This document shows, piece by piece, positions 7,587 through 53,475 of a stretch of 64,000 nucleotides of DNA (within the stretch, counting starts at the first letter, position 1; every line of letters starts with the position of its first letter). The notes under the pieces were generated by a model, which saw only the letters and a program-made list of their open reading frames with translations, was not told the origin of the DNA and ran no database searches. A program made the position numbers and the translations under genes. The DNA is from Gammaproteobacteria bacterium (lineage in GTDB: Bacteria > Pseudomonadota > Gammaproteobacteria > HK1): NCBI GenBank assembly GCA_965204915.1, contig OZ242023.1, forward strand, positions 1,138,840 to 1,202,839, read 5' to 3'.

Positions 7587-8585
7587 CTACCCGCCTGCCG
7601 CCTTGTCCGCGAAGCTGCGGTCGATGAGCTCGCCGGTGGTCAGCCTCTTCTTGATGTAGCCGAGCTCCAGCGACCAGTCCATGAGCCGCTGGATGAAGGC
7701 GACGTCGGCGTCGTTCAGGCTCCACTCCCAGCCGAGCCGGGCGCGCGCCTGCCGCACGACCTCGGTGGCGGGATACACGGTGCCGTCCGGCCCGGTCACC
7801 TCGCCGAGCTTGAACGCCGCGGCAATGACGTCGTTCCCGGCGTCCTCTCCGGAATTCAGGAAGTCGACCGCCTTCCGGTGGGCGCGCAACGCCTTCACGA
7901 TCGCGTCCGGGCGGTTCTCCATCGCCTCCGGCATCGCGGAGATGATGTACCAGGGGTAGCGGGGCACGGCCTCGTTGATGTCGAAGATCACCCGGGTGTT
8001 CCCCCGCAGCAGGAACTGCGAGATGAACGGCTCCCACATGAAGGCGGCGTCCACCACCTTCGATTCGAGGGACGGCCCCATGTTGCCGGAGGGCATGGAG
8101 ATGATCTGCGCGTCCTCGTCGGGGACGAGTCCCGCCGCTTCGCCGAACACGAAGCCGCGCAGCAGCACGTCCATGCCGGACCCCTTGCGCACCCCGGCCA
8201 TCTTGCGGCCCTCGAGGTCGGCCAGAGCCGCGATGCCGGAATCCTTGCGGCTCACCACCGCCGCCTGGCCGTAGTTCACCTTGGCGAGGATCTTCGACTC
8301 CAGCCCCCGCGAGAACCAGTGGTACACCGGCGGGGAGCCGATGTACGCCAGATCGATCTCCCCGGCCACCATCGCCTGCTTCAGCAGCGGCCCGCTGGTG
8401 AACGACAGCAGCTTCGCGTCGAGACCCTGCTCCTCGAAGTAGCCGTTGCTGTCGGCGACCAGCACCGGCGCGTTCGCCATCGCGTACACCCAGCCGATGC
8501 GGACCTCGTCCGCCGCATGGGACGCCGCCCCGGCGGCGGCGAGCCAGCCGGCCGCCAGCGCGGCAAGAGCCTGCTTCGTCTTCAT
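7587..8585 (-). CDS. ABC transporter substrate-binding protein (SsuA/NMT1-like)
   Basis: Signal peptide, GYFEEQGLD, FTSGPLLKQAMVAGEIDLAYIG, DAAFMWEPF. Confidence 0.88.
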   Translation of the reverse strand: MKTKQALAALAAGWLAAAGAASHAADEVRIGWVYAMANAPVLVADSNGYFEEQGLDAKLLSFTSGPLLKQAMVAGEIDLAYIGSPPVYHWFSRGLESKILAKVNYGQAAVVSRKDSGIAALADLEGRKMAGVRKGSGMDVLLRGFVFGEAAGLVPDEDAQIISMPSGNMGPSLESKVVDAAFMWEPFISQFLLRGNTRVIFDINEAVPRYPWYIISAMPEAMENRPDAIVKALRAHRKAVDFLNSGEDAGNDVIAAAFKLGEVTGPDGTVYPATEVVRQARARLGWEWSLNDADVAFIQRLMDWSLELGYIKKRLTTGELIDRSFADKAAGG

Positions 8586-39089: not shown

Positions 39090-41644
39090 GCGGCGCCACG
39101 AGCGGGACGAGCAGCACGACGAGCAGCGCGACCGGCGCCACGAGAACGATGACCGACGCCACCACCGAATCCCCTTCGCGGCCCAACGTTCGGTTCCGGC
39201 AGGTGGGCCGGCCGCTCACCCGCACCGACGCGCCCGGCAAGGTGGCCGGCCGCACTCCCTACGCCGGCGACTACACGATGCCGAACATGCTGCACATGCG
39301 CGTGGTCCGGGCGGACGTGGCCAGCGCCCGGCTCGTGCGCCTCGACGTCTCGAAGGCGCGGGCGCTCGAAGGGGTCGCCTGCGTGCTCACCGCCGAAGAC
39401 CTCCCCGACCGCACCGCGTCCACCGACATTCCGGGCCAGGTCGGCCGCAAGCGCCTCGACACCGGCCAGCAGATCCTGGTCAGGGAGCGGGTGCGGTACT
39501 TCGGGGAGCCGCTGGCCCTCATCGCGGCGGAGACCCGCGACGCCGCGGACCACGCCCTGGAGCGGGTGGAGGTCGAGCTGGAGCCCGTTCCCGGCGTCTA
39601 CGATCCGATGGAGGCGATGCAGCCCGGCGCCCCCGTCGTCACCGAGCCCGACAACGTCGTCGCGGAGCGCAGGATCAGGAAGGGCGACGTGGAGGCGGGC
39701 TTCGCCGAGGCCGACGTCATCGTCGAGAACACCTTCCGGACCCCGTTCCAGGAGCACGCCTTCCTCGAGCCCGAGGTGGGGCTCGCCTGGATCGACGAGA
39801 ACGACGTGGTCAACATCCGCGTCTCCACCCAGGTGATCGAGCACTTCCGGCCCATCGCCGACGCCATCGGGGCGCCCCACAACAAGGTCCGCATCCGCGG
39901 CGCCCTGGTCGGCGGCGGCTTCGGCGGCAAGGAGGATCTGACCGTCGAGGTCTACCTGGCCCTGCTCGCGAAGCGCACGGGCCGGCCGGTGCGCCTCGAA
40001 TACTCCCGCGAGGACTCCTTCGTGGGCCACGGCAAGCGCCATCCCTTCGTGCTGACGTATCGCACCGGGGTCACCCGGGACGGCAGGATCACCGCGCTGG
40101 ACGTGCGCATGGTGGCCGATTCGGGGGCCTACGTGTTCCTGAGCCCCTACGTGCTGCTCTACGCGCTGGTGGCCGCCCCCGGCCCCTACCGGATCGACAA
40201 TCTCAACGTCTTCGCCCGCGCGGTGGCCACGAACAACATGTTCACCAGCGCCTTCCGGGGCTTCGGCGCCCTGCAGGCCTGCGCCGCCTACGAGCAGCAG
40301 ATGGACGAGGTGGCGAAGGCGATCGGGCTCGACCGCATGGAGCTGCGGCGGCGCAACTTCCTGAAGACCGGCGAGCCGATGTCGACGGGCTTCGTGCCCC
40401 CGAGCGCGATCTGGACGGACCGCTGCGCGGAACGGGCCTGGGCCGCGCTCGGGGAGCGAGCAGGCGCCGAGCGCGGCCTCGGGGAGCGTGCGCCCGGGGA
40501 GCGAGCAGGCGCCGAGCGCGGCCTCGGGGAGCGTGCGCCCGGGGAGCGAGCAGGTGCCGAGCGCGGCTTCGGGGAGCGCGCGCCCGGCGAGCACGGCGGC
40601 CCCGCCGAGGGTGCCTCCGCCCGGGGGCCGATCCGCATCGGCCGCGGCATCGCCTGCTACCAGCAGAGCTACGGCCGGCTCACCTTCCTGCACGACACCT
40701 CGGAGGCCTGGGTCGGGGTCGAGATGGACGGCACCGTGATCGTGCGTTCCGGGGTCACCGACATCGGCGCCGGGCAGGTGTCGGCGCTGGGCCAGATCGC
40801 GGCGGAGGCGCTCGGCGTCACCCTCGACAACGTGGTGGTCTACAACAGCGACTCGGCGGTGACCCCGCTCGCCGGCACCACCACCGCGACCCGCGCGCTG
40901 TACATGACCGGCAACGCGGTGAAGCAGGCGGCGGAGGCGGTCCGGGCGCGGCTCGCGGAACGGGCGGCGAAGGAGCTCGGCGTGGCCCCGGGCGAGGTCG
41001 ACATAGGCTTCAACGAGGTCTTCGTGGCCGATCGCCCGGAGCGGTCCATGCCCCTGGTCGATCTGGTCCGGATCTGCGGTTCGGAGGGGATCCACCGCTC
41101 CGAGCTCGCCATGTTCCGCGCCCCCTTCACCGACTCCCTCGACCCGGAGACCGGCCAGGGCCAGGCCCATCCCGACTACGCCTACGGCGCGCACGCGGTC
41201 GAGGTGGCGGTGGACGTCGAGACCGGCGAGGTGGAGGTCCTGAAGAGTGTCGCCGCCCACGACGTCGGGCAGTGTATCAATCCGGCCGCGGTGGAGGGCC
41301 AGATCCAGGGCGGCGCCCAGAACGGCCAGGGCTACGCGCTCAGCGAGGAGATGCTCTACGAGGAGGGGCGGCTGATCACCCCGTCGTTCAGCGAGTACCT
41401 GATGCCCACGGCCATGGACATGCCGAAGGTGGAGTGCATCATCCTCGAATCCCGCAGCGGCGTCGGCCCCTACGGCGCCAAGGGCATCGGCGAGCCGGCG
41501 ATGACCCCGGTGGCGCCGGCCATCGCCAACGCCGTCGCCGACGCGATCGGGGTGCGGGTGTTCGAGCTGCCGATCACGCCGGAGCGCATCGTGAAGGCGT
41601 TGCAGCAGCGCGGCGGGACCGGGCGGGATGATCCACCGGCATGA
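39086..41644 (+). CDS. Xanthine dehydrogenase family molybdopterin-binding subunit (substrate unknown)
   Basis: QEHAFLEPE, GGGFGGK, AFRGFGALQ, HDVGQCINP..VEGQIQGG, GAKGIGEP; 45-bp repeat x3 at 40451-40592. Confidence 0.93.
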   Translation: MSGATSGTSSTTSSATGATRTMTDATTESPSRPNVRFRQVGRPLTRTDAPGKVAGRTPYAGDYTMPNMLHMRVVRADVASARLVRLDVSKARALEGVACVLTAEDLPDRTASTDIPGQVGRKRLDTGQQILVRERVRYFGEPLALIAAETRDAADHALERVEVELEPVPGVYDPMEAMQPGAPVVTEPDNVVAERRIRKGDVEAGFAEADVIVENTFRTPFQEHAFLEPEVGLAWIDENDVVNIRVSTQVIEHFRPIADAIGAPHNKVRIRGALVGGGFGGKEDLTVEVYLALLAKRTGRPVRLEYSREDSFVGHGKRHPFVLTYRTGVTRDGRITALDVRMVADSGAYVFLSPYVLLYALVAAPGPYRIDNLNVFARAVATNNMFTSAFRGFGALQACAAYEQQMDEVAKAIGLDRMELRRRNFLKTGEPMSTGFVPPSAIWTDRCAERAWAALGERAGAERGLGERAPGERAGAERGLGERAPGERAGAERGFGERAPGEHGGPAEGASARGPIRIGRGIACYQQSYGRLTFLHDTSEAWVGVEMDGTVIVRSGVTDIGAGQVSALGQIAAEALGVTLDNVVVYNSDSAVTPLAGTTTATRALYMTGNAVKQAAEAVRARLAERAAKELGVAPGEVDIGFNEVFVADRPERSMPLVDLVRICGSEGIHRSELAMFRAPFTDSLDPETGQGQAHPDYAYGAHAVEVAVDVETGEVEVLKSVAAHDVGQCINPAAVEGQIQGGAQNGQGYALSEEMLYEEGRLITPSFSEYLMPTAMDMPKVECIILESRSGVGPYGAKGIGEPAMTPVAPAIANAVADAIGVRVFELPITPERIVKALQQRGGTGRDDPPA

Positions 41645-41943: not shown

Positions 41944-42181
41944 CTACATTCACTACTACCCGGATGGTGAATGGCCATGACCGGGGGTCCGGTGCTCCGG
42001 CCCCGGACCCGGCTTCGGTTCCGGGGGTGATGCGGGCCGGCTGGCGTGCTCCGAGCCGATGCCCGCGGATCGTCATCGTCGCCGTCTTGCCGGGTGGGTG
42101 GAGACGCGGCGGAATCCGGCCGGCGACGGCCATACCGGAGGCCGGCGGAGCGGCCTCGCCAATCCACAGAGAGGGAAGACC

Positions 42182-43219
42182 ATGAACGGACATCTGAAGC
42201 TGGGGGCCGTGGTCGTCGCGCTGGCGTTCGCGGCCGGTGCGGCGCAGGCCGCGGGGAAGCTCTCGATCTACCACTGGTTCGAGTACATCCCGCAGGAGCT
42301 GCTCGACAAGTTCTCCGCCGAGCACGGGGTCGAGGTGACCATGGACACCTACGATTCCAACGAGGCGATGCTGGCCTCGCTCAAGGCGGGCAAGCTCGGC
42401 GCCTACGACGTGGCGGTGCCGGGCGACTACATGGTCGAGATCATGGCCGGCGAGGGGATCCTCGACGAGGTCGCGCCCGGCGAGCTCGCCAACATCGGCA
42501 ACGTCGAGCCGCAGTGGATGGACGTGCCCTTCGATCGGGGCCGCAAGCACTCGATCCCCTACCAGTGGGGCTCGACCAGCTTCTCGGTGAACCGCGACGT
42601 CTACACCGGCGACATCGACACCACCGGCATCATCTTCGACCCGCCCGAGGAGTTGCGAGGAAAGATCAACGTGCTCGACAGCCAGGGCGAGGTCATGCTG
42701 ATGGCGTCGCTGCATCTCGGCATCCCGCAGTGCACGACCGACCGCGAGCAACTGAAGGCGCTCGACGCGCTGCTGCAGGATGCGAAGCGGCACTGGGCCT
42801 CGTTCGGCTCGGACATCGCCAAGGACGTCCTGGTCTCCGGCGACGCGGCGGCAGGGATGATCTACAACGGCTTCTCCGCCAAGGGCCGCGCGGAAGGCGC
42901 GAACATCGAGTACGCCTACCCGAAAGAGGGCTACGTGGTGTGGATGGACAACGTCGTCCTCCTGGAGGACGCCCCCAACCGCGCGAACGCCATCAAGTTC
43001 ATGGACTTCCTGCTGGAGCCGGAGAACATCGCGGCGGTGACCAACTACGCGCGCTACGCGGCGGGGGTGAAGGGAGTCACCGATCTGCTGGACGAGGAGC
43101 TGAAGACCTCGCCCGAGTCCGTGCCTCCGGCGGACGCCCCGCCGGGCACCTTCATCGCGGTGTGCGACCAGGAGACCCAGGAGGTCTACGACGCGATCTG
43201 GACGCGGCTGAAGAAGTAG
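42182..43219 (+). CDS. PotD/PotF-like polyamine ABC substrate-binding protein (orphan)
   Basis: IYHWFEYIPQELL, YDSNEAM, YDVAVPGDY, PYQWG, YPKEGYVVWMDN. Confidence 0.92.
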   Translation: MNGHLKLGAVVVALAFAAGAAQAAGKLSIYHWFEYIPQELLDKFSAEHGVEVTMDTYDSNEAMLASLKAGKLGAYDVAVPGDYMVEIMAGEGILDEVAPGELANIGNVEPQWMDVPFDRGRKHSIPYQWGSTSFSVNRDVYTGDIDTTGIIFDPPEELRGKINVLDSQGEVMLMASLHLGIPQCTTDREQLKALDALLQDAKRHWASFGSDIAKDVLVSGDAAAGMIYNGFSAKGRAEGANIEYAYPKEGYVVWMDNVVLLEDAPNRANAIKFMDFLLEPENIAAVTNYARYAAGVKGVTDLLDEELKTSPESVPPADAPPGTFIAVCDQETQEVYDAIWTRLKK

Positions 43220-43470: not shown

Positions 43471-43740
43471 TTGAAGAAGCGTCTGGACAAGCGCCGCCCG
43501 ACGACCGCGATCTCCATGCGCTTTCCGGCGGACGTCATCGAGGACCTGAAGCGGGTGGCGCTCCTGCGGGGCTTTACCGGCTGTCAACCCCTGATCCGCG
43601 CCTACGTGGGCCAGGGGCTTCGCGAGGATCTGGAGCAGCTTGAAGAGGACCCGGTGACCGTCCTGGTGGAGAGCCTGAAACGCCGGGGGGTGAGCGAGAC
43701 CGTCATCGAGGAGGCGCTTACCGAGGCCGCCCGGAAGTGA
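43471..43740 (+). CDS. CopG/RHH-type antitoxin; original start appears mutated
   Basis: KKRLDKRRP..ISMRFPADVIEDLKRVA..GF.G.QPLIRAYVGQGLREDLE; upstream ACGTAGCTTGAAGCG looks like decayed ATGAAGCTTGAAGCG. Confidence 0.7.
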   Translation: MKKRLDKRRPTTAISMRFPADVIEDLKRVALLRGFTGCQPLIRAYVGQGLREDLEQLEEDPVTVLVESLKRRGVSETVIEEALTEAARK

Positions 43741-43854
43741 CCGGCGAACGGCCCGGACTCCATCGCTTATCGGCCGAAATCGGGCTGATGAGGGCTATAT
43801 GACCCGAGTTCCAGCATTCTCGTGGGACCTTGCATGGGGCATGGAGGGAGACCC

Positions 43855-44622
43855 ATGACAATTCAGTCGGACGTGGCCCTGTACTTTGCACGACAGATGC
43901 GGGGAGCACGTGCGCAGGTCCAGGCGGACGCGGAAGGGTACGTGGCGGTCGCCATCGCCGTTGAGCAGCTTGCGGCGGCGCTGGGCGCCAAGGGCGGGGC
44001 ATGTGCGGCTTGGAAAGTCATCGTTGACACCCTTTCCCTCGATGGTGACTGGACCGGGGACGGCGGAGCGCCGTCCCTCGGCTCCGCCTACTACCGGGTA
44101 CGCCGTGCGCGCAACATCGCCGTCCATGAAGGCGCCATGTCGCGTGCCGTGGCGACGCACGCCATCGATCTCACCATAGGACTGGAGGTTGCCTTGATGA
44201 ATGCTGTGGACACTGACGCTGCGCACGCCTGGATGGTGCCCGATCCCACTGTCGCACATCCCTGGATGACCGTTGCACAAGTGCGCAGCGCGCTCCTTGC
44301 AGGCGGGTTCAGCGCCCTTCCTATCTGGTGGAAGGAGGCTTGTGCTTGGCACCTCGTCCGAGACGTCGACGTAGTCGCCTATCTGGCATATGGCGGCAGT
44401 GTGAGGAAGCTGGAGCGGAAACGGGTCGAGGATGTCGCTCGCGCAGACGGTGGCGCCACACTGCAAATCCATCGGGCCCCGCTCGTCGTCCGACCAAACA
44501 AGTGCGTACAGGCATTGAAGGGAACCTATTGGGAGTCCGGGTGGCCGGCGCTCGTTGTCTCCGACCAGGACTCCGCGTGTTTGGTGGGTATCCTCACGCC
44601 GCACGACTTGCTGACCAAGTGA
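43855..44622 (+). CDS. HEPN-like (RxxxxH) domain fused to a CBS pair, copy 1
   Basis: Helical N-domain with VEQL and RNIAVH (44110-44127); CBS1 MVPDPTVAHPWMTVAQVRSALLAGGFSALPI; CBS2 LVGILTPHDLL; GGAGG RBS. Confidence 0.72.
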   Translation: MTIQSDVALYFARQMRGARAQVQADAEGYVAVAIAVEQLAAALGAKGGACAAWKVIVDTLSLDGDWTGDGGAPSLGSAYYRVRRARNIAVHEGAMSRAVATHAIDLTIGLEVALMNAVDTDAAHAWMVPDPTVAHPWMTVAQVRSALLAGGFSALPIWWKEACAWHLVRDVDVVAYLAYGGSVRKLERKRVEDVARADGGATLQIHRAPLVVRPNKCVQALKGTYWESGWPALVVSDQDSACLVGILTPHDLLTK

Positions 44623-44689
44623 CGGCATGATGACGAATTCCGCGCTGGATCGACCTCCCAGGAGCCAACGAACTCGGGGGAGTAGCAGA

Positions 44690-47416
44690 GTGAAGCTGAA
44701 AGCAGCAGTGGTTGCGGTGGTAGCCATAGGTGCCAGTGGAACAGGAGTAACTGAGACGGGCGGCCGTTGGTCAGTCGCAGAGATGCGCCAAGACGGGCGA
44801 TCCGGCGTGGTCGCCTCCTCACCACCCGTCAAGGGCGCTACGCTGAGCGTCGCCTGCTCAAGCCTGGATACCGACAGGGAGGAGCTGTCGATTGCCCTTG
44901 CCAACGTGTCGCCTCCAGCAGGCAGGTCGCATGCCGAGGACGCAATGTTATTGTGGAGGAAGGGTGGCCGCCTTGAGGGGTTTCTCTTTGCCCGTGCCCG
45001 GAGGCTTGGGGAAGGATCATACCAAGCCTTCCGCGACCACCGGAACGCCTACAATGCATGGGTCTTCGACTCCGTGCTGGATGCCATCATTGAAGGGAGG
45101 GCCATTGATGTCGGAGTGGATGTCTTCGGGGAGCTGTATCGTTGGGATGTGTCCTATTCGTTCCCGTTGGACGGGTCCGCCGTTGCGGTTCGGGAGGTCA
45201 TACGAGCCTGTGAGCACGTTCAACAGAGCGGGGCGCAGGATGTCAACGGCTCCTCCGCAGGGCGGCCTGCAGTAAAATCAGCGGGAAGGCACGCCCGGTT
45301 CGGGCCGTGTGCAATGCCGCGGCAGCGCATATCGGAAGCTGACGAAGAAGCGGCATCATGGTTGGACCCCGCGGCTTTGCACCGCCAGAGCATAGCGCGG
45401 TGGCAAAGCAGCGTGTGTGACGAACCGGACGGGCTGTCCAAACTGTTCTCGGATGGAGGTCCCCCTTTTGTACTACCGGGCCTAGCGACAGCCAGCGCCT
45501 TGGAGCACGGGCCATCACAAGCACTAATCCGAGATGCGTATGGAGCACTGCATGCCGACGGAGACCTGTCGCACTTAGATGACGCCGATGCCAAGGGAGT
45601 GTTCGAGACGGCTTACTTCGAGAACAACGCGGACGCTCAATACCGTTTGGGGAGGTGGTACCAGAAAGACGAAACCAAGCCAGGGGACCTCAGTAGCCTA
45701 AGCCAGTTCTGGTGGCAGCAGGCAGCTATACAGGGGCATCCCAACGCACAAGCGTGGCTCGGGCGGTCGCTCGCAGGCATCACTTTGACCGGTGGAACAT
45801 CATGCGCACGGGCGAAGAATTGCTATGGGGGGGATAATGGGAGATACAGGGAGATACACGCCAAGGGGTGGGAGTGGATTGAGCGGGCGGCAGCCCAAGA
45901 AAGCCCCTTTGCCGTCTTCGACCTGGGCGTCCGTCTCATCCTGCCTGAGTGGTCCGACTCCATGGGGCGCGTCCGCAACCACGCGGGGGCGGCATACGAC
46001 AGCCCGGCGGCGGTCCGCGATGCGTTGCGCGGGGTCGGCATGCTTCGGCAAGCGGTGCCGAAGATCGAGGGTCACGATGGCGCTCGGTATGCCTTGAGCT
46101 TGGCCCACCTGCTTGCCTGGAACCTAGCCTACTTGGGGCACCCTCCGGATTACAGTGCCACGGACGAAACCCCTTTCGAACATCGCTTACTCTGGGATGC
46201 GTTTCGGAGGCTCACGAAGGACGGTCCTCCTCCCCTGCGTGTCGCCGACCAGCTCCGGCCGGTTCGCGAGGCCGTCCACGACCCGGATGAGGCTTTGGAG
46301 TGGTACCGTTACGCTGGCTCCCGTGGTGATGTCCAGATTTGGAAGGAGGTGTCGAGCGCCCTCTACGGGGATTGGGAGAGGGTGTGGCATGCCGGCACGG
46401 TTCCCGGTTCGTTCCGTGGATACCAGAACCATCGGGAAGCGACCCGCTGGTTACGAGCCGCTGCGCTACAAGGTGACCTGTGGTCCCAAGTCCATCTTGG
46501 ACGACGGTACGCCGACGGGATCGGAGTCCCGAAAGACAACGTGCAGAAGTACGCGTGGTGGAACATCGCAGCTACCGCCTCCGTTTCACCCGATAATTTT
46601 CCTCGGTTCGCGGAACCCGAGTTCGCAGACTTCCTGTCCTTCCTCCGGAAGAACCTGGAGTTCGACTTCGGCGTCTCGCGTTCCGAGGCGGTGCAGGGCC
46701 AAGCCTTGGCCCGCGAGCTGTACGCGCGCATGTCTGCAGATACCGAACGCCCTCCGCAGACGAAGACCGCAAGCCAGGGGACCGGCATCCTGTTTGCGGT
46801 GGGCACTGCGGTGGTGACCAACCACCATGTGGTGGAAGGGTGCCCGCAGGTCGCCGTCGCCCGCGACGGGCAGGTGCGCAGCGCGATCGTCTCGGGGAAG
46901 GATGACGGCAATGACCTCGCCTTGCTCGAGCTCGAACGTCCATTGCGCGGCGGCGACGCCCACCTCCGCCCCCGCTCCAAGGTCTCTGTAGGGGAGCGCG
47001 CCGTGGTCGCCGGCTTCCCGTTTACGAGCGGCGACGGGTTCACCGTGACCACCGGGAACATCAGCGCCACACGTGGCCCCGCGGGGCGTACCGGGCTGTT
47101 CCAATTCACCGCGCCCATTCAGCAGGGGAACAGCGGCGGCCCCGTTATCGGAGACGATGGGGCGATCCTCGGGGTCGTCGTCTCGAAGCTCGACGCGATA
47201 GCCGTTGCTGCGGCCACCGGCGACCTTCCCCAGAACGTCAACTACGCTGTCCATGGGGCGGTCCTCCGTACGTTCCTCGACCTCAATGGCGTGGACTACC
47301 GGGCTCTGGCACGGTCTGGCCAGCGGTCCGATGCGGAGCTTGCGGATGAGGCCCGCCGGTTCACGGTGCTGGTGACCTGCACGCCGGATACGCAGCCATC
47401 CGGGACGGATCCATGA
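44690..47416 (+). CDS. Secreted Sel1-repeat protein with a C-terminal trypsin-like (S1C-type) serine protease
   Basis: Hydrophobic N-terminus after GTG 44690; Sel1 repeats (AQYRLGRWY, LQGDLWSQVHLGRRYADGIGVPKD); triad TNHHV, NDLAL, GNSGGP. Confidence 0.85.
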   Translation: MKLKAAVVAVVAIGASGTGVTETGGRWSVAEMRQDGRSGVVASSPPVKGATLSVACSSLDTDREELSIALANVSPPAGRSHAEDAMLLWRKGGRLEGFLFARARRLGEGSYQAFRDHRNAYNAWVFDSVLDAIIEGRAIDVGVDVFGELYRWDVSYSFPLDGSAVAVREVIRACEHVQQSGAQDVNGSSAGRPAVKSAGRHARFGPCAMPRQRISEADEEAASWLDPAALHRQSIARWQSSVCDEPDGLSKLFSDGGPPFVLPGLATASALEHGPSQALIRDAYGALHADGDLSHLDDADAKGVFETAYFENNADAQYRLGRWYQKDETKPGDLSSLSQFWWQQAAIQGHPNAQAWLGRSLAGITLTGGTSCARAKNCYGGDNGRYREIHAKGWEWIERAAAQESPFAVFDLGVRLILPEWSDSMGRVRNHAGAAYDSPAAVRDALRGVGMLRQAVPKIEGHDGARYALSLAHLLAWNLAYLGHPPDYSATDETPFEHRLLWDAFRRLTKDGPPPLRVADQLRPVREAVHDPDEALEWYRYAGSRGDVQIWKEVSSALYGDWERVWHAGTVPGSFRGYQNHREATRWLRAAALQGDLWSQVHLGRRYADGIGVPKDNVQKYAWWNIAATASVSPDNFPRFAEPEFADFLSFLRKNLEFDFGVSRSEAVQGQALARELYARMSADTERPPQTKTASQGTGILFAVGTAVVTNHHVVEGCPQVAVARDGQVRSAIVSGKDDGNDLALLELERPLRGGDAHLRPRSKVSVGERAVVAGFPFTSGDGFTVTTGNISATRGPAGRTGLFQFTAPIQQGNSGGPVIGDDGAILGVVVSKLDAIAVAAATGDLPQNVNYAVHGAVLRTFLDLNGVDYRALARSGQRSDAELADEARRFTVLVTCTPDTQPSGTDP

Positions 47417-47516
47417 CCGATGGTGAGTGGGATGGATTCTGCATCAGCCGGGTGGGCTACATGACTCCAGCTCCAGTATTCTCGCGGGACCTTGCACGGT
47501 GCATGGAGGAAAACCC

Positions 47517-48302
47517 ATGACAATCCAGCGGGAAGAAGCCGTGTACTTCGCACGGCAGCTCCGCACGGCACGTGCACAGGTCCAGGCGGACGCCGAGGGC
47601 TATGTGGCGGTCGCCATCGCCGTCGAGCAGCTCGCGGCGGCGTGGGGGGCGAAAAAAACCGGAATGGACGCGGCCATGGAGGTGATTGTCAAAGCCCTCT
47701 CTCCTCTCAGTGACGGCTGGGCGCACGGGCACAATGGCTCGCCTTCCCTCAATGCCGTCTGCCACCGCGTGCGCAAGGCGCGCAACGTCGCCGTCCATGA
47801 AGGCGCCATGCCGCGTGCCGTAGCCGCCCATGCCATCGACCTCACCATCGGACTGGAGATTGCCCTGATGACTGATGCCGACACCCACGCTGCACACGCC
47901 TGGATGGTGCCCCATCCCACGGTTGCGCATCCCTGGATGACCGTCGCGCAGGTGCGTGGCGCGCTCCTCGCAGGCGGGTTCAGCGCCCTCCCCATCTGGT
48001 GGGAGGATGCTTGTGCTTGGCGCCTCGTGTGCGACATCGATGTGGTGGCGTATCTGCAGAAGGCCCCAAAAAACATCAAACAGAAACAGGAATGGGAGCG
48101 GAAACGGCTACAGGACGTGGCGGGCACGAAAGACCAAATGCTACCGCTGCATCCGCCTCCGCTCGTCTGCCACCCGGGAGACGATGTGCGAGAGCTGGAT
48201 TTGTCCCTCTTGCGCGGCGGATTGCCTGCCTTGGTGGTCTGTGGAAGTGACTCCGGACGCCTCCTCGGCGTTCTGACGCCGCACGACTTGCTGACCAGAT
48301 AA
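47517..48302 (+). CDS. HEPN-like (RxxxxH) domain fused to a CBS pair, copy 2
   Basis: Paralog of 43855-44622; RNVAVH at 47781-47798; LLGVLTPHDLL; GGAGG RBS. Confidence 0.72.
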   Translation: MTIQREEAVYFARQLRTARAQVQADAEGYVAVAIAVEQLAAAWGAKKTGMDAAMEVIVKALSPLSDGWAHGHNGSPSLNAVCHRVRKARNVAVHEGAMPRAVAAHAIDLTIGLEIALMTDADTHAAHAWMVPHPTVAHPWMTVAQVRGALLAGGFSALPIWWEDACAWRLVCDIDVVAYLQKAPKNIKQKQEWERKRLQDVAGTKDQMLPLHPPPLVCHPGDDVRELDLSLLRGGLPALVVCGSDSGRLLGVLTPHDLLTR

Positions 48303-48372
48303 CGACATGGACACGAATCGCCCGGGCGGCTGCCGGAATCGACCCCGGACCGGACCCGGAGCCCGGATGGCT

Positions 48373-48768
48373 TCAGGGCATCGTCCAGTTCTCGATGGCG
48401 ATGCCCGGGATTGCGCCGAAATCCTTCTCGTTGTTGGTGACCACGACGAGTCCCAGCGAGATCGCCTGGGCCGCGATCTGGCGGTCGTAAGCATTGCGCC
48501 TCGAAGGGGCCGCCGCCTGTATCCGGCCGAAGACTCGCGCCGCGGCGTCGTCGAACGGCATCACGACGACGTCGGCGAGAACCGGGGCCGCGTCCCTTCT
48601 CGCTCCATCCTGATCGCCGCTCTTCGCAAACCAGGTTTCCAGCTCCCCGAGGGTGACGGCCGACATGACGAGGTCGCCTGCCTCGCATTCGCCGAACCGC
48701 CGGTCGAGGTGCTCGTTTCCGCCCTGGATGGCATACACGCAGATATTGGTGTCGAGCAGGTACTTCAA
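48373..48768 (-). CDS. vapC: VapC PIN-domain toxin
   Basis: YLLDTNIC, SAVTLGEL, YDRQIAAQA, VVTNNEKDF. Confidence 0.92.
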   Translation of the reverse strand: MKYLLDTNICVYAIQGGNEHLDRRFGECEAGDLVMSAVTLGELETWFAKSGDQDGARRDAAPVLADVVVMPFDDAAARVFGRIQAAAPSRRNAYDRQIAAQAISLGLVVVTNNEKDFGAIPGIAIENWTMP

Positions 48769-48781
48769 CGAACCAATCCCT

Positions 48782-49096
48782 TCAGCCATTCCCGTCCGGG
48801 AGGCGGAAGGCGCCGTCGGCCGGCCAGTCGCGTTCGTCCTGAACCGGCTGGTCGCGCCGGAAGTCCCTGAAACGGGGCCGCAGCTTGCGGAACGCGGCGC
48901 CGAGTCCGGTGAGCTTTCGCCTCGCGGGGCGCACGATCAGCTCTTCTCCCCGCCGCTCTATCTCGACCTCGACGTCGACGCTGCCGAAGGCGAGCGCTTT
49001 CGGGATCCGAACCGCCTGGCTGTTCCCGTTCTGAAACAACCGGGTTCGTCTGGGGGCGCCGTATGCACCGGGTTGCCGTGGCCTGGGGGTCTCCAT
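48782..49096 (-). CDS. vapB: VapB (AbrB/SpoVT-type) antitoxin
   Basis: RLFQNGNSQAVRIPK..EVEIERRGEELIVRP; directly upstream of vapC. Confidence 0.9.
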   Translation of the reverse strand: METPRPRQPGAYGAPRRTRLFQNGNSQAVRIPKALAFGSVDVEVEIERRGEELIVRPARRKLTGLGAAFRKLRPRFRDFRRDQPVQDERDWPADGAFRLPDGNG

Positions 49097-49578
49097 GGAC
49101 ACTTGGGGTCGCCTCCCTTGGGTCGTGGCTCGACGTTCGTCCGGCCGTCCTGGAAGCTCGAACCGGCCGTGCCGGGACTCTACCCATGCTCTCCGATGTC
49201 TGTAAACACGTCCATATCTACATCGACGATGGCTGCCCCGGTCCCGACGGGTCTCCCCGGCACGCTCGAAGCTCCCGGTGGACGGCCGACGACGGTGCAC
49301 GACATCCGCCGCTCCGGGGCCGCCGTCCGGCACCACGGCATAGGTCGTGACAGCGCAGGCGGGTCATCCGGCCATCTCCGATCGAAGCGAAGACAGGGCA
49401 TTGGGAGGAGAGGGTCTTCCGGCGCGGGGAATCGTCCCCGGACGATCGGACGATCACCGTATGGCGGTATGGCGGGACGTGGGGCTGACGCCGGCCGAGC
49501 GGGGGCGGTCCCCGCCGGCGGGAATCGTGCGGGGTCGTTGACGGCCAGGGCCGGCCGCCGGTGCGGTAAGCTGTGCTC

Positions 49579-51150
49579 ATGAGTTCCAGACGCAAGCTGC
49601 CCATCGGCATCCAGACCTTCCGCACCATCCGTGAGGAGGGCTGTTACTACGTCGACAAGACCGCCTACATCGATCTGCTGCTCGATGAGGGCACCCACTA
49701 CTTTCTGTCCCGTCCGCGGCGCTTCGGCAAGAGCCTGTTCCTGGACACCCTGAAGGAGCTCTTCGAGGGCAACGAGGCGCTGTTCGAGGGGCTGGCCATC
49801 CACGGACGCCGGGACTGGTCGGTGCGTCATCCGGTGCTGCGGCTCAGCTTCGGCACCGGTGATTTCAAGCAACCGGGTTTCCTGGAAGCGAGCTTCATGG
49901 AGAAGCTGGCCGCCGCCGAGGCCGAGGCGCAGGTGGTCACGGACTACGCCACGGCCCCCGGACGCTTCGCGGCGCTGCTCGCGGCGCTGCATCGCCGGAC
50001 CGGCCAGCGGGTGGTGGTGCTGGTGGACGAGTACGACAAGCCGATCCTGGATGCGCTCGCCGTGCCGGACATGGCCCGCGCGAACCGGGACTTCCTGCGC
50101 GGCGTGTATTCGGTCGTGAAGGACAGCGACGCCCACGTCCGGTTCACGTTCATCACCGGAGTCAGCAAGTTCTCCAAGGTCAGCCTGTTCTCCGGCCTCA
50201 ACAACCTCAAGGACATCACTCTGAACCCGCGTTACTCCGCCATCTGCGGCTACACCGACGCGGACCTCGACACCGTGTTCGCGCCGGAGCTTCCGGGGTT
50301 GGACCGCGACGAGATCCGCCGCTGGTACAACGGCTACGACTGGCTGGGCGGGGAGAGGGTCTACAACCCCTTCGACATCCTGCTGCTGTTCGACACCCGC
50401 GAGTTCGCCGCCCACTGGTTCCGGACCGGCACGCCGACGTTCCTGGTCGAGACGCTGGTCAGGCGCGGGGTGAGTCCCCTGGCGCTGGAGAGGATGGCCG
50501 GCACCGACGACCTGCTCTCCACCTTCGACGTGGACGACATGGCGACGGAGGCGCTGCTGTTCCAGACCGGCTACCTGACCATCCGGGACCACAGGCGCCT
50601 GGGCGGCCGGACCGTGTACCGGCTCGGCTATCCGAACCAGGAAGTGCGCCAGAGCCTCAACGACAGCCTGTCGCGCTACCTGGCCGGGGATTCGACGCGC
50701 CAGATGGCCAACAGCATCCGGCTTTACGAACTGCTCGAAGCCAACGACTTCGCGGGCCTGAAGACCCTGTTCCACGTCTTCTACGCGAGCATCCCCCACC
50801 AGTGGTACACCAACAACGACATCGCCAACTTCGAGGGCTACTACGCGAGCGTGTTCTACTCCTACTTCGCGGGTCTCGGTCTGGACGTGACGGTGGAGGA
50901 CAGCACCAGCCACGGACGTCTGGACATGGCGGTGTGCTTCAACGCCAACGTGTACCTGTTCGAGTTCAAGGTGGTGGAGCTGGAGCCTGCGGGAGAAGCG
51001 GCGCCGCGGAACGCGGCGATGGCGCAGTTGAAGGAACGGCGCTACGCGGACAAGTACCGGCACTTGGGGCAGCCGATCCACCTGGTTGCGGTGGAGTTCA
51101 GCAAGGAGGCGCGCAACGTGGTGGCGTTCGAGGTGGAGTGTGCGGCATGA
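49579..51150 (+). CDS. AAA-ATPase-like N-domain plus C-terminal PD-(D/E)XK nuclease (PDDEXK_9 type)
   Basis: KLPIGIQTF, YYVDKT, SRPRRFGKSL, LVDEYDKP, GRLDMAV..YLFEFK. Confidence 0.92.
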   Translation: MSSRRKLPIGIQTFRTIREEGCYYVDKTAYIDLLLDEGTHYFLSRPRRFGKSLFLDTLKELFEGNEALFEGLAIHGRRDWSVRHPVLRLSFGTGDFKQPGFLEASFMEKLAAAEAEAQVVTDYATAPGRFAALLAALHRRTGQRVVVLVDEYDKPILDALAVPDMARANRDFLRGVYSVVKDSDAHVRFTFITGVSKFSKVSLFSGLNNLKDITLNPRYSAICGYTDADLDTVFAPELPGLDRDEIRRWYNGYDWLGGERVYNPFDILLLFDTREFAAHWFRTGTPTFLVETLVRRGVSPLALERMAGTDDLLSTFDVDDMATEALLFQTGYLTIRDHRRLGGRTVYRLGYPNQEVRQSLNDSLSRYLAGDSTRQMANSIRLYELLEANDFAGLKTLFHVFYASIPHQWYTNNDIANFEGYYASVFYSYFAGLGLDVTVEDSTSHGRLDMAVCFNANVYLFEFKVVELEPAGEAAPRNAAMAQLKERRYADKYRHLGQPIHLVAVEFSKEARNVVAFEVECAA

Positions 51151-51164
51151 GCCTCGATCCATCA

Positions 51165-52968
<1,804 letters not shown>

Positions 52969-52972
<4 letters not shown>

Positions 52973-53475
52973 TGGAGATCGCGGAAGGGGGCCTCACGTT
53001 TTCGTTCCCGGACCAGTGCGAAGCCGGCAAGTACGACGACTGGTCGTTCTACCGCAGCCAGTTCCAGTCCATGGCCGGCGGATCGATGGCGGTTGACATC
53101 CTCTGCCTTGCAGGCGGCGTTGCCTGGCTGGTCGAGATCAAGGACTACCGGCAATATCCCCGGATGAAGCTGAGCGATCTCTGCGACGAGGTGGCGCAAA
53201 AAGTACGCGATACGCTGTCGGGCTTGGCGGCGGCGAGCGCAAACGCCGACGATGCCAACGAGCAGGCACTCGCATGCCGAGCGCTGGCGATGCGCCGGTG
53301 GCGGGTCGCACTGCACCTCGAACAGCCGAGCGTGTCGTCACGACTCCGGCGATGGGCAGTCGATCCCGCCAGCATGAAATCGAAACTGCGCAAGGGATTG
53401 AAGGCCATCGATCCCAACCCGGTGGTTGTGGATAGCCAAAGGCCGCATCCCGACATCCCCTGGACCGTTCGATAG
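52969..53475 (+). CDS. Small putative PD-(D/E)XK nuclease, translationally coupled to the ATPase
   Basis: ATGA overlap; VDILCLAGGVAWLVEIKDY fits D-x10-11-E-x-K. Confidence 0.62.

Follow-up and report, generated by a model that had tools for sequence, protein, structure and literature searches.

We analysed a 64,000-nucleotide stretch of contig OZ242023.1 from a gammaproteobacterium (assembly GCA_965204915.1), hereafter the window, in which two related genes, termed A and B, lie on either side of a gene for a trypsin-like protease. Gene A (43855-44622, plus strand) was read from its open reading frame and translation as a protein of 255 amino acids, with a HEPN-like N-terminal domain (residues 1 to about 119) followed by a CBS pair (residues about 120-255) that gave a weak Pfam CBS match. 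Gene B (47517-48302, plus strand) encodes 261 amino acids, with a HEPN-like N-terminal domain at residues 1-122 and a CBS pair at residues 123-261, for which the Pfam CBS match reached 6.4e-6 and an AlphaFold2 model was available. The two co-oriented paralogs were present where an initial annotation of this DNA had placed them, and their products were 64% identical (BLASTP, 5e-106). The motifs pointed out in that annotation were found as well: VEQL at residues 36-39 in A and in B alike; the Rx4H catalytic-type motif, which is RNIAVH in A (residues 86-91; 44110-44127, plus strand) and RNVAVH in B (residues 89-94; 47781-47798, plus strand); and the ribose/phosphate-site signature of the second CBS motif (CBS2), which is GILTPHD in A (residues 245-251; 44587-44607, plus strand) and GVLTPHD in B (residues 251-257; 48267-48287, plus strand). 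The ATG starts of A and B are those of all homologs.

The N-terminal domain was examined in a diverse alignment of 108 homologs (average column identity 26%), and the residue numbers that follow are those of B. R89, N90, H94, G96, R100, E114, M130, R147 and G251 were invariant in all 108 sequences, so that the R, N and H of the Rx4H motif were never replaced, and R16, R19, E27, E37, W140 and D257 were near-invariant. E37, kept in 107 of the 108 sequences, sits in predicted helix 2 and E114 in helix 4, and the RN...H pattern was found in all full-length family members listed. The AlphaFold2 model of B made with the 108-sequence alignment reached a pLDDT of 93.2 and a pTM of 0.87; modelling from 29 close homologs had given a poor result (pLDDT 61.6). 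Four helices were predicted (H1, 5-24; H2, 26-42; H3, 78-95; H4, 99-121), followed from about residue 123 by beta-alpha CBS elements. According to the model and the alignment, the insert at residues 43-77 between helices 2 and 3 is variable and poorly conserved, and the motif at residues 89-94 forms the C-terminal end of helix 3. HEPN domains have been described as four-helix up-down bundles in which a variable insert separates the second helix from the third, and the third ends with an Rx4-6H motif (PMC3710099). That the N-domain of B matches this published topology, the position of the motif and the acidic residue of helix 2 is well supported by the predicted model.

The C-terminal half is a tandem CBS pair, also called a Bateman module. 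In a profile search of the PDB, residues 116-254 of B matched the CBS pair of MJ1225 (6e-5), and Foldseek with the model of B recovered AMPK-gamma, AcuB (AMP/ADP/Ap4A) and CBSX2 (AMP) at about 1e-5 over some 140 columns. The initial annotation had described the CBS motif as intact, which stood for CBS2, where G251 was invariant, T254 was kept in 91 and D257 in 105 of the 108 sequences, and did not stand for CBS1; the canonical G-h-h-T-x-x-D occurs in CBS2 only, and CBS1 carries W168-x-L-V-(S/C/R)-D173 instead. Since CBS1 deviates from the signature, one canonical CBS site per protomer is likely. The assignment of A and B as HEPN-CBS proteins was thus borne out by the invariant RNxxxH of the 108 homologs, the predicted four-helix topology, and the CBS matches obtained by PDB profile and Foldseek. 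The same annotation had made the assignment depend on conservation of RxxxxH in homologs and on a HEPN fold of the N-domain; the motif is conserved, and the domain looks HEPN-like on the predicted model, with no structural match to a solved HEPN.

Both genes are headed by a common leader, which spans 43790-43854 before A, with a GGAGG ribosome-binding site, and 47452-47516 before B (both plus strand). The roughly 60 bp of shared upstream sequence, ribosome-binding site included, that had been noticed earlier proved to be about 65 nucleotides of about 85% identity, with GGAGG before each ATG. A leader of 58-65 nucleotides was common to every family copy in the window's clade, including copies at unrelated loci (L001-L007 and L080-L082 in our numbering of the loci), and upstream of it the sequence at L003 and L006 was wholly divergent. 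The presence of the same leader on every copy, whatever the locus, is consistent with autonomous expression. The possibility that this leader forms an RNA structure was also weighed, but the fold had only -8 kcal/mol and little covariation (term +0.47), and the idea was given up. As the fold was unsupported, the leader is probably a promoter or a 5′ untranslated region. A search of the window with Rfam gave no matches, and signals resembling a sigma-70 promoter or a terminator did not rise above shuffled expectation.

The middle gene (44627-47416, plus strand) encodes a protease of 929 amino acids with Pfam matches to Trypsin_2 (1.6e-22) and Sel1 (1e-11). It was indeed tightly flanked by the two paralogs, with 4 nucleotides from the stop of A to the protease start and 100 nucleotides from the protease end to the ATG of B, and A and the protease are predicted to form a co-transcribed operon. 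The protein starts with a signal-peptide-like segment at residues of about 14-42, in which a basic region is followed by LKAAVVAVVAIGASGTGV (Kyte-Doolittle 1.63); Sel1 repeats cover about residues 335-655 (some 320 amino acids) and the trypsin domain residues 718-850, and the N-terminal region of 330 amino acids was without match. A candidate catalytic triad was located by motif at H734 (TNHHV), D763 (NDLALL) and S836 (GNSGGP). The best sequence matches of the protease in the PDB were DegQ and DegS (about 1e-15), and DegP and Sel1 proteins were also matched; no PDZ domain was found in the protease with Pfam, and its scores against HtrA-type NCBIfam models (43-75 bits) lay far under the cut-offs of 250-800. 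In PADLOC, the trypsin domain resembled RT-Protease_XI (3.4e-16) and LmuA (7e-5). Judged by its N-terminus the protease of the window is probably exported; the hydrophobic N-terminal segment was weaker in the homologs at L003 and L006, and it was clear in the proteases that neighbour distant family members at L028, L048 and L073.

To see which of the three genes belong together, the arrangements in close relatives were compared from the contexts of their family genes and from tblastn with the protease. The order A-protease-B was found in the window and at L005 only, and the protease at L005 is 99.8% identical and therefore not an independent occurrence. At another locus (Abhydrolase_10 ... DctM), L003, L006 and L081 carried an A-like gene followed by a full-length protease of 70% identity, without B. 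A single family gene without the protease stood at the window's own locus (SBP, an open reading frame of 94 amino acids, the family gene, PIN/MazE, AAA-ATPase_like) in L002, L004 and L080, and in L082 the single family gene at this locus was followed by a Sel1 protein. At L001 and L007, the protease gene upstream of a B-type gene was reduced to its last 43 codons (7769-7897, 97.7% identity), beside a DDE transposase. Such a remnant, lying between the transposase and a B-type gene that is itself intact, indicates that A and the bulk of the protease were deleted in an insertion-sequence-associated event. Protease fragments seen at L004 (tblastn E 7e-4) were weak and were not counted as reliable. 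These four arrangement states point to A plus protease as one unit and to B as the other; A and the protease would be a mobile two-gene cassette beside the solo paralog B, and not part of a three-gene machine. Besides its A-like gene and protease, the genome of L003 has a third paralog, the divergent P0311, which belongs to the P0041 cluster (representative about 51% identical to B).

Within the window's clade, two hypervariable segments (residues 46-80 and 181-238) recombine independently and are exchanged even between nearly identical relatives. When P0017 was compared with A, identity was 100%, 97% and 100% over three segments of residues 1-122, and 27% over residues 181-238. Such a mosaic of hypervariable modules is often seen in conflict genes.

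The three genes lie in DNA that is less GC-rich, as had been suspected, with a GC content of 0.60-0.67 from about 43.5 to 53.5 kb, compared with 0.69-0.76 on either side. They also lie, as had been stated, among toxin-antitoxin loci: outside the cassette, an RHH/CopG-like open reading frame of 89 amino acids (43471-43740, plus strand; weak RHH_5, CopG_antitoxin and BrnA matches) is found upstream of A, and vapBC adjoins B, with the PIN toxin VapC at 48373-48789 (Pfam PIN 2.9e-14) and the MazE/AbrB-type antitoxin VapB at 48782-49099 (Pfam MazE_antitoxin 1.3e-7), both on the minus strand. At the SBP locus (L002, L004, L080 and L082) the family copies are preceded by the 89-residue open reading frame, which is absent at the Abhydrolase_10 locus (L003, L006 and L081). 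The stretch that holds A, the protease and B appears to be horizontally acquired and defence-island-like.

Further along the island, a gene at 49573-51150 combines AAA-ATPase_like (1.3e-62) with a PDDEXK_9 nuclease (8.6e-22); it adjoins vapB in all related assemblies and had no PADLOC match. An ATPase at 51908-52972 matched the PADLOC candidate defence model HEC-02B (1e-149), and its partner of 168 amino acids (52969-53475), which overlaps it by 4 nucleotides, had no Pfam match; the pair also follows the island in L005. A direct repeat of 48 nucleotides (42140-42187 and 51254-51301, 90% identical) flanks the gene of a periplasmic binding protein and most of the island, and its first copy holds the ribosome-binding site and ATG of that gene. 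Farther upstream, an in-frame 45-bp tandem repeat (40445-40592; 3.3 copies, 95% matches) falls within the gene of a xanthine-dehydrogenase-like molybdopterin subunit, where it encodes GERAGAERGLGERAP units; orthologs of this subunit vary in length among related assemblies (827, 898 and 871 amino acids).

The family to which A and B belong proved to be large. A word-indexed search returned 40 close clusters, none of which was named, and an exhaustive profile search returned 887 representatives at E<1e-3 and at least 674 at E<1e-10 (clusters at 50% identity). Nearly all members have 245-270 amino acids and matched over their full length, and hundreds of such matches make the HEPN-CBS architecture a family and not a local oddity. 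Their source annotations read 'hypothetical' or 'CBS domain-containing', and the family is covered by none of the models in Pfam, NCBIfam or PADLOC; scans of A and B with Pfam, NCBIfam, PADLOC and PHROGs gave weak CBS matches only, with no HEPN or defence model. Some distant members (P0074, P0355, P0112, P0093, P0114, P0166 and P0175) carry N-terminal extensions, namely a HicB-like domain named by JGI, ankyrin repeats, or domains of about 300 amino acids without a Pfam match, and these extensions may be alternative sensor or partner modules.

A survey with one genome per species and a sub-alignment that sampled only the RNDAxHQGA subclade yielded 68 distant loci from Chloroflexota, Cyanobacteria, Acidobacteriota, Myxococcota, Planctomycetota, Verrucomicrobiota, Binatia, Deinococcota and Proteobacteria. 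All-against-all clustering of the open reading frames within 5 kb of these loci revealed no conserved partner, and the family gene is basically a solo gene in most cases. None of the 68 loci carried two full copies, and several paralogs per genome occur. At some loci an immediate neighbour was of defence or mobile type, among them Mrr, HEC-05, mad2, mad6, a 929-residue N6/N4 methylase, type I restriction-modification, an integrase and DUF6361; type III restriction-modification was likewise seen among the neighbours of family members. Members were also present on 14 plasmids (Burkholderia, Cupriavidus, Acidovorax, Deinococcus), some of them near HipA or a phospholipase-D-like gene.

Proteases or repeat proteins of the kind seen in the window adjoined the family gene at a few of the distant loci: TPR and Trypsin_2 at L028, Trypsin_2 and TPR at L048, Trypsin_2 with a 6-nucleotide gap at L041, and Sel1 at L061 and L073. 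In the 965 kb covered by the 68 loci there were seven trypsin or Sel1 matches, and five of these were immediately adjacent to the family gene, which has a binomial probability of about 6e-4 if about 13% of genes are counted as adjacent (our own estimate). The association thus looks real, and the recurrence of TPR/Sel1-trypsin genes next to distant members makes the link look functional. A neighbour of this type was absent at about 61 of 66 distant loci, and the protease therefore cannot be generally required.

The closest known system is DS-11 (WP_000257686.1), a one-protein CBS plus HEPN system of E. coli with anti-phage activity (DefensePredictor, Science 2026, PMC13092281). Its mutants R330A and H335A in the HEPN domain and Y157A in the CBS domain lose defence, from which its authors concluded that CBS controls the nuclease through binding of an adenine derivative; the HEPN domain was reported to be SAV2148-like (PMC13092281). 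The initial annotation had regarded its candidate as undescribed, an idea that DS-11 overtakes, since a CBS plus HEPN anti-phage protein has already been validated (PMC13092281). For comparison, the DS-11 sequence was taken from the supplement of that paper, expanded into a family of 3643 proteins, and aligned profile against profile with hhalign, and also as a single sequence. The window family is like DS-11 in having a CBS pair and an RNxxxH HEPN in one polypeptide, in being a stand-alone gene, and in the proposed control of a dimeric RNase by an adenine ligand, and the two CBS pairs are homologous at the profile level (hhalign 94.5%). The order of domains differs, however: DS-11 has an N-domain, CBS and a C-terminal HEPN in 365 amino acids, whereas the window family has HEPN and then CBS in about 255, and DS-11 is without a protease partner. 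On the profile comparison, the proteins of the window resemble DS-11 in their proposed logic and fall outside the DS-11 family. The list of predicted defence genes in the same work also includes an E. coli 'CBS domain-containing protein' of 263 amino acids, WP_001532511.1 (PMC13092281, Table S10), which by its size could belong to the family; no E. coli member was found among the top 120 family matches.

Fusions of HEPN with CBS, some of them with an additional HD domain, were recognised in 2013, when regulation of RNA stability by a nucleotide ligand was proposed for them (PMC3710099). Fusions named there, such as alr3009 and gi 118580987 of Pelobacter propionicus (PMC3710099), are like A and B in the described joining of HEPN to CBS; alr3009 carries an HD domain, which A and B do not. 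The CBS-gated RNase that had been proposed for the window would follow the same logic as this 2013 proposal and is in line with the DS-11 mutagenesis. In AbiU2, another HEPN family without CBS, the genes sit in operons with Sel1-repeat proteins (PMC3710099); no AbiU2 Pfam match was obtained here, and no trypsin domain is mentioned for the AbiU2 partner. The protease of the window shares with HtrA, DegS and DegQ a trypsin-fold domain and the H-D-S motifs, its N-terminus resembles an export signal, and it differs from HtrA in its Sel1 repeats N-terminal of the protease domain, the lack of PDZ and the unmatched N-region of 330 residues. In Csm6 and Csx1, a CARF sensor binds an adenylate-derived ligand and activates a dimeric HEPN RNase, which leads to dormancy or abortive infection. 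These enzymes resemble A and B as fusions of a ligand sensor with a HEPN RNase; their sensor, however, is CARF and their ligand a cyclic oligoadenylate made by Cas10, whereas the sensor of A and B is CBS. Scans with Pfam, NCBIfam and PADLOC gave no CARF or Cas matches, and the scan of the island turned up neither CRISPR nor synthase genes. The adjacent minimal nucleotidyltransferase antitoxin that marks HEPN-MNT toxin-antitoxin pairs is absent here: the flanking genes in the window showed no such nucleotidyltransferase domain with Pfam, and none occurred among the 25 commonest neighbour families of 66 distant loci.

Our interpretation, which we regard as probable, is that A and B are two autonomous ligand-gated HEPN RNases from a widespread family of cytoplasmic proteins that has no name as yet. 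They would be analogous to DS-11 and act in defence or stress-induced arrest, and A shares an operon with a probably exported protease of a kind whose link to the family recurs. By analogy with DS-11 and the CARF-HEPN enzymes we infer the RNase activity, its ligand and gating, the role in defence and any role of the protease, and the mechanism would run as follows. The HEPN-CBS protein would dimerise, and an adenine-containing ligand would bind at the one canonical CBS site (G251, T254 and D257). Binding would move the paired HEPN domains into a position in which their Rx4H motifs together make up an active RNase that needs no metal; this would then degrade cellular RNA, invader RNA or both and halt growth, and the outcome may be defence of the abortive-infection type or stress-induced dormancy. 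The invariant motif, the predicted fold, the confirmed CBS pair, the two HEPN families among the weak Pfam matches of isolated N-domains, the precedents of 2013 and DS-11, the arrangements in close relatives and the recurrent protease neighbours speak for this interpretation. So do the hallmarks of a conflict system, namely the size of the family, the solo gene, the defence neighbours, the plasmids, the paralogs, the shuffled modules, and the low-GC island with vapBC and the HEC-02 ATPase.

A number of observations weigh against it. Neither Pfam, NCBIfam nor PADLOC linked the N-domain significantly to any recognised HEPN family, its profile returned only coiled-coil or designed-helix noise from the PDB sequences, and Foldseek with the full model of B against PDB and BFVD gave matches of the CBS half or noise, the list being saturated by CBS. 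When 40 isolated N-domains were scanned with Pfam, nine families matched weakly and below threshold, two of which were HEPN (DUF4145, 0.0023; HEPN_Swt1, 0.053). Because no significant profile or structure match was obtained, membership in HEPN is argued from the motif, its conservation and the predicted topology. The HEPN domains of DS-11 and the window family aligned over 19 motif residues only, with a probability of 20%, and DS-11 is known by experiment, the window family by sequence and a predicted model. No nucleotide-signal synthase was found among the island genes scanned, and no phage record or PHROG match pointed to phage-encoded relatives. Many neighbours of the distant homologs are housekeeping genes (enolase, RecA, aminotransferases), and the enrichment in defence islands therefore appears modest. 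Finally, a protease that looks exported is hard to fit to a cytoplasmic RNase mechanism.

Other explanations were weighed beside that of two autonomous RNases. The initial annotation had treated the three genes as one system, and A, the protease and B could in principle be tripartite, with the HEPN-CBS proteins cooperating, for example as a heterodimer, and the protease between them; this agrees with the A-protease-B order in the window and L005, with the similar leaders of A and B, by which co-regulation is possible, and with the fact that HEPN domains act as dimers. However, L005 with its 99.8%-identical protease is not independent, three assemblies have an A-like gene and protease elsewhere without B, three have single copies without the protease at the same locus, B-type genes remained intact beside the 43-codon remnant where A and the bulk of the protease had been lost in association with an insertion sequence, and two full copies occurred at 0 of the 68 distant loci. 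By comparative genomics the tripartite explanation is largely refuted, and we consider it very unlikely. A protease-activated effector, in which the Sel1/TPR part senses an invader or stress and the trypsin-like protease cleaves the HEPN-CBS protein, for example freeing it of an inhibitory CBS pair, has comparators in the protease-activated bacterial gasdermins and in the CalpL and Csx29 cascades. The 4 nucleotides between the stop of A and the protease ATG suit such activation, as do the repeat plus trypsin proteases that adjoin distant members in different phyla and gene orders (L028, L048, L041, L061 and L073) and the resemblance of the trypsin domain to the defence-associated models RT-Protease_XI and LmuA. 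Yet the proteins of the window, L028, L048, L073 and L061 begin with signal-peptide-like or transmembrane-like segments and the nearest solved relatives are periplasmic HtrA proteases, while the HEPN-CBS proteins carry no export signal and about 61 of 66 distant loci lack such a neighbour. With signal-peptide-like N-termini on the proteases, direct action on a cytoplasmic RNase is doubtful, and we hold activation by cleavage to be quite unlikely.

A role in normal physiology, as an RNase that senses energy charge or an alarmone and tunes RNA turnover or dormancy, and whose operon an HtrA-like protease could tie to envelope stress, seems to us unlikely. It would accord with the classical ligands of CBS pairs (AMP, ATP, Ap4A and c-di-AMP), with the ligand-regulated RNA stability proposed in PMC3710099, with the many metabolic neighbours and with a partner protease of the envelope-stress HtrA type. 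Against these points, the distribution is patchy, multi-copy and plasmid- or island-borne with mosaic modules, which is atypical of housekeeping regulators, and the only tested CBS plus HEPN protein, DS-11, is a defence protein. The N-domain might also be a non-nuclease helical domain for dimerisation or regulation, its RNxxxH-like motif having arisen by chance, so that the whole protein would be a non-catalytic CBS regulator. The failure to obtain a significant HEPN profile or structure match is what this predicts, and inactive HEPN-like domains exist (PMC3710099); but R, N, H, G and the second R are invariant in 108 sequences, the acidic E37 is near-invariant and E114 invariant, and such conservation, at the exact HEPN position, is what a catalytic site would be expected to show, which makes a non-nuclease highly improbable. 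The autonomous RNases may, lastly, be set in a broader picture, in which the family would have been assembled independently, as a class of ligand-gated RNase effectors in its own right, and a recurrent subset would be functionally coupled to exported TPR/Sel1-HtrA-like proteases, such that an event at the envelope (phage adsorption, injection or envelope damage) would be relayed to the cytoplasmic RNase, perhaps by a nucleotide that CBS reads; this two-compartment arrangement is a speculative proposal to which we give little credence.

CBS-regulated HEPN RNases have only recently, through DS-11, come to be counted among validated anti-phage systems, and the proteins of the window would be a second form of the two-domain CBS-HEPN solution, with the reversed order and a different HEPN lineage. 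The family is far more widespread in environmental phyla and settings, namely Acidobacteriota, Chloroflexota, Cyanobacteria, Planctomycetota, Binatia and Burkholderiales plasmids, and a profile of it would annotate hundreds of proteins now called 'hypothetical' or 'CBS domain-containing'. The protein of 255 amino acids may serve as a compact model for the predicted gating of a HEPN nuclease by a Bateman module, and the repeated adjacency of the family to exported-looking, repeat-containing serine proteases provides a testable link.

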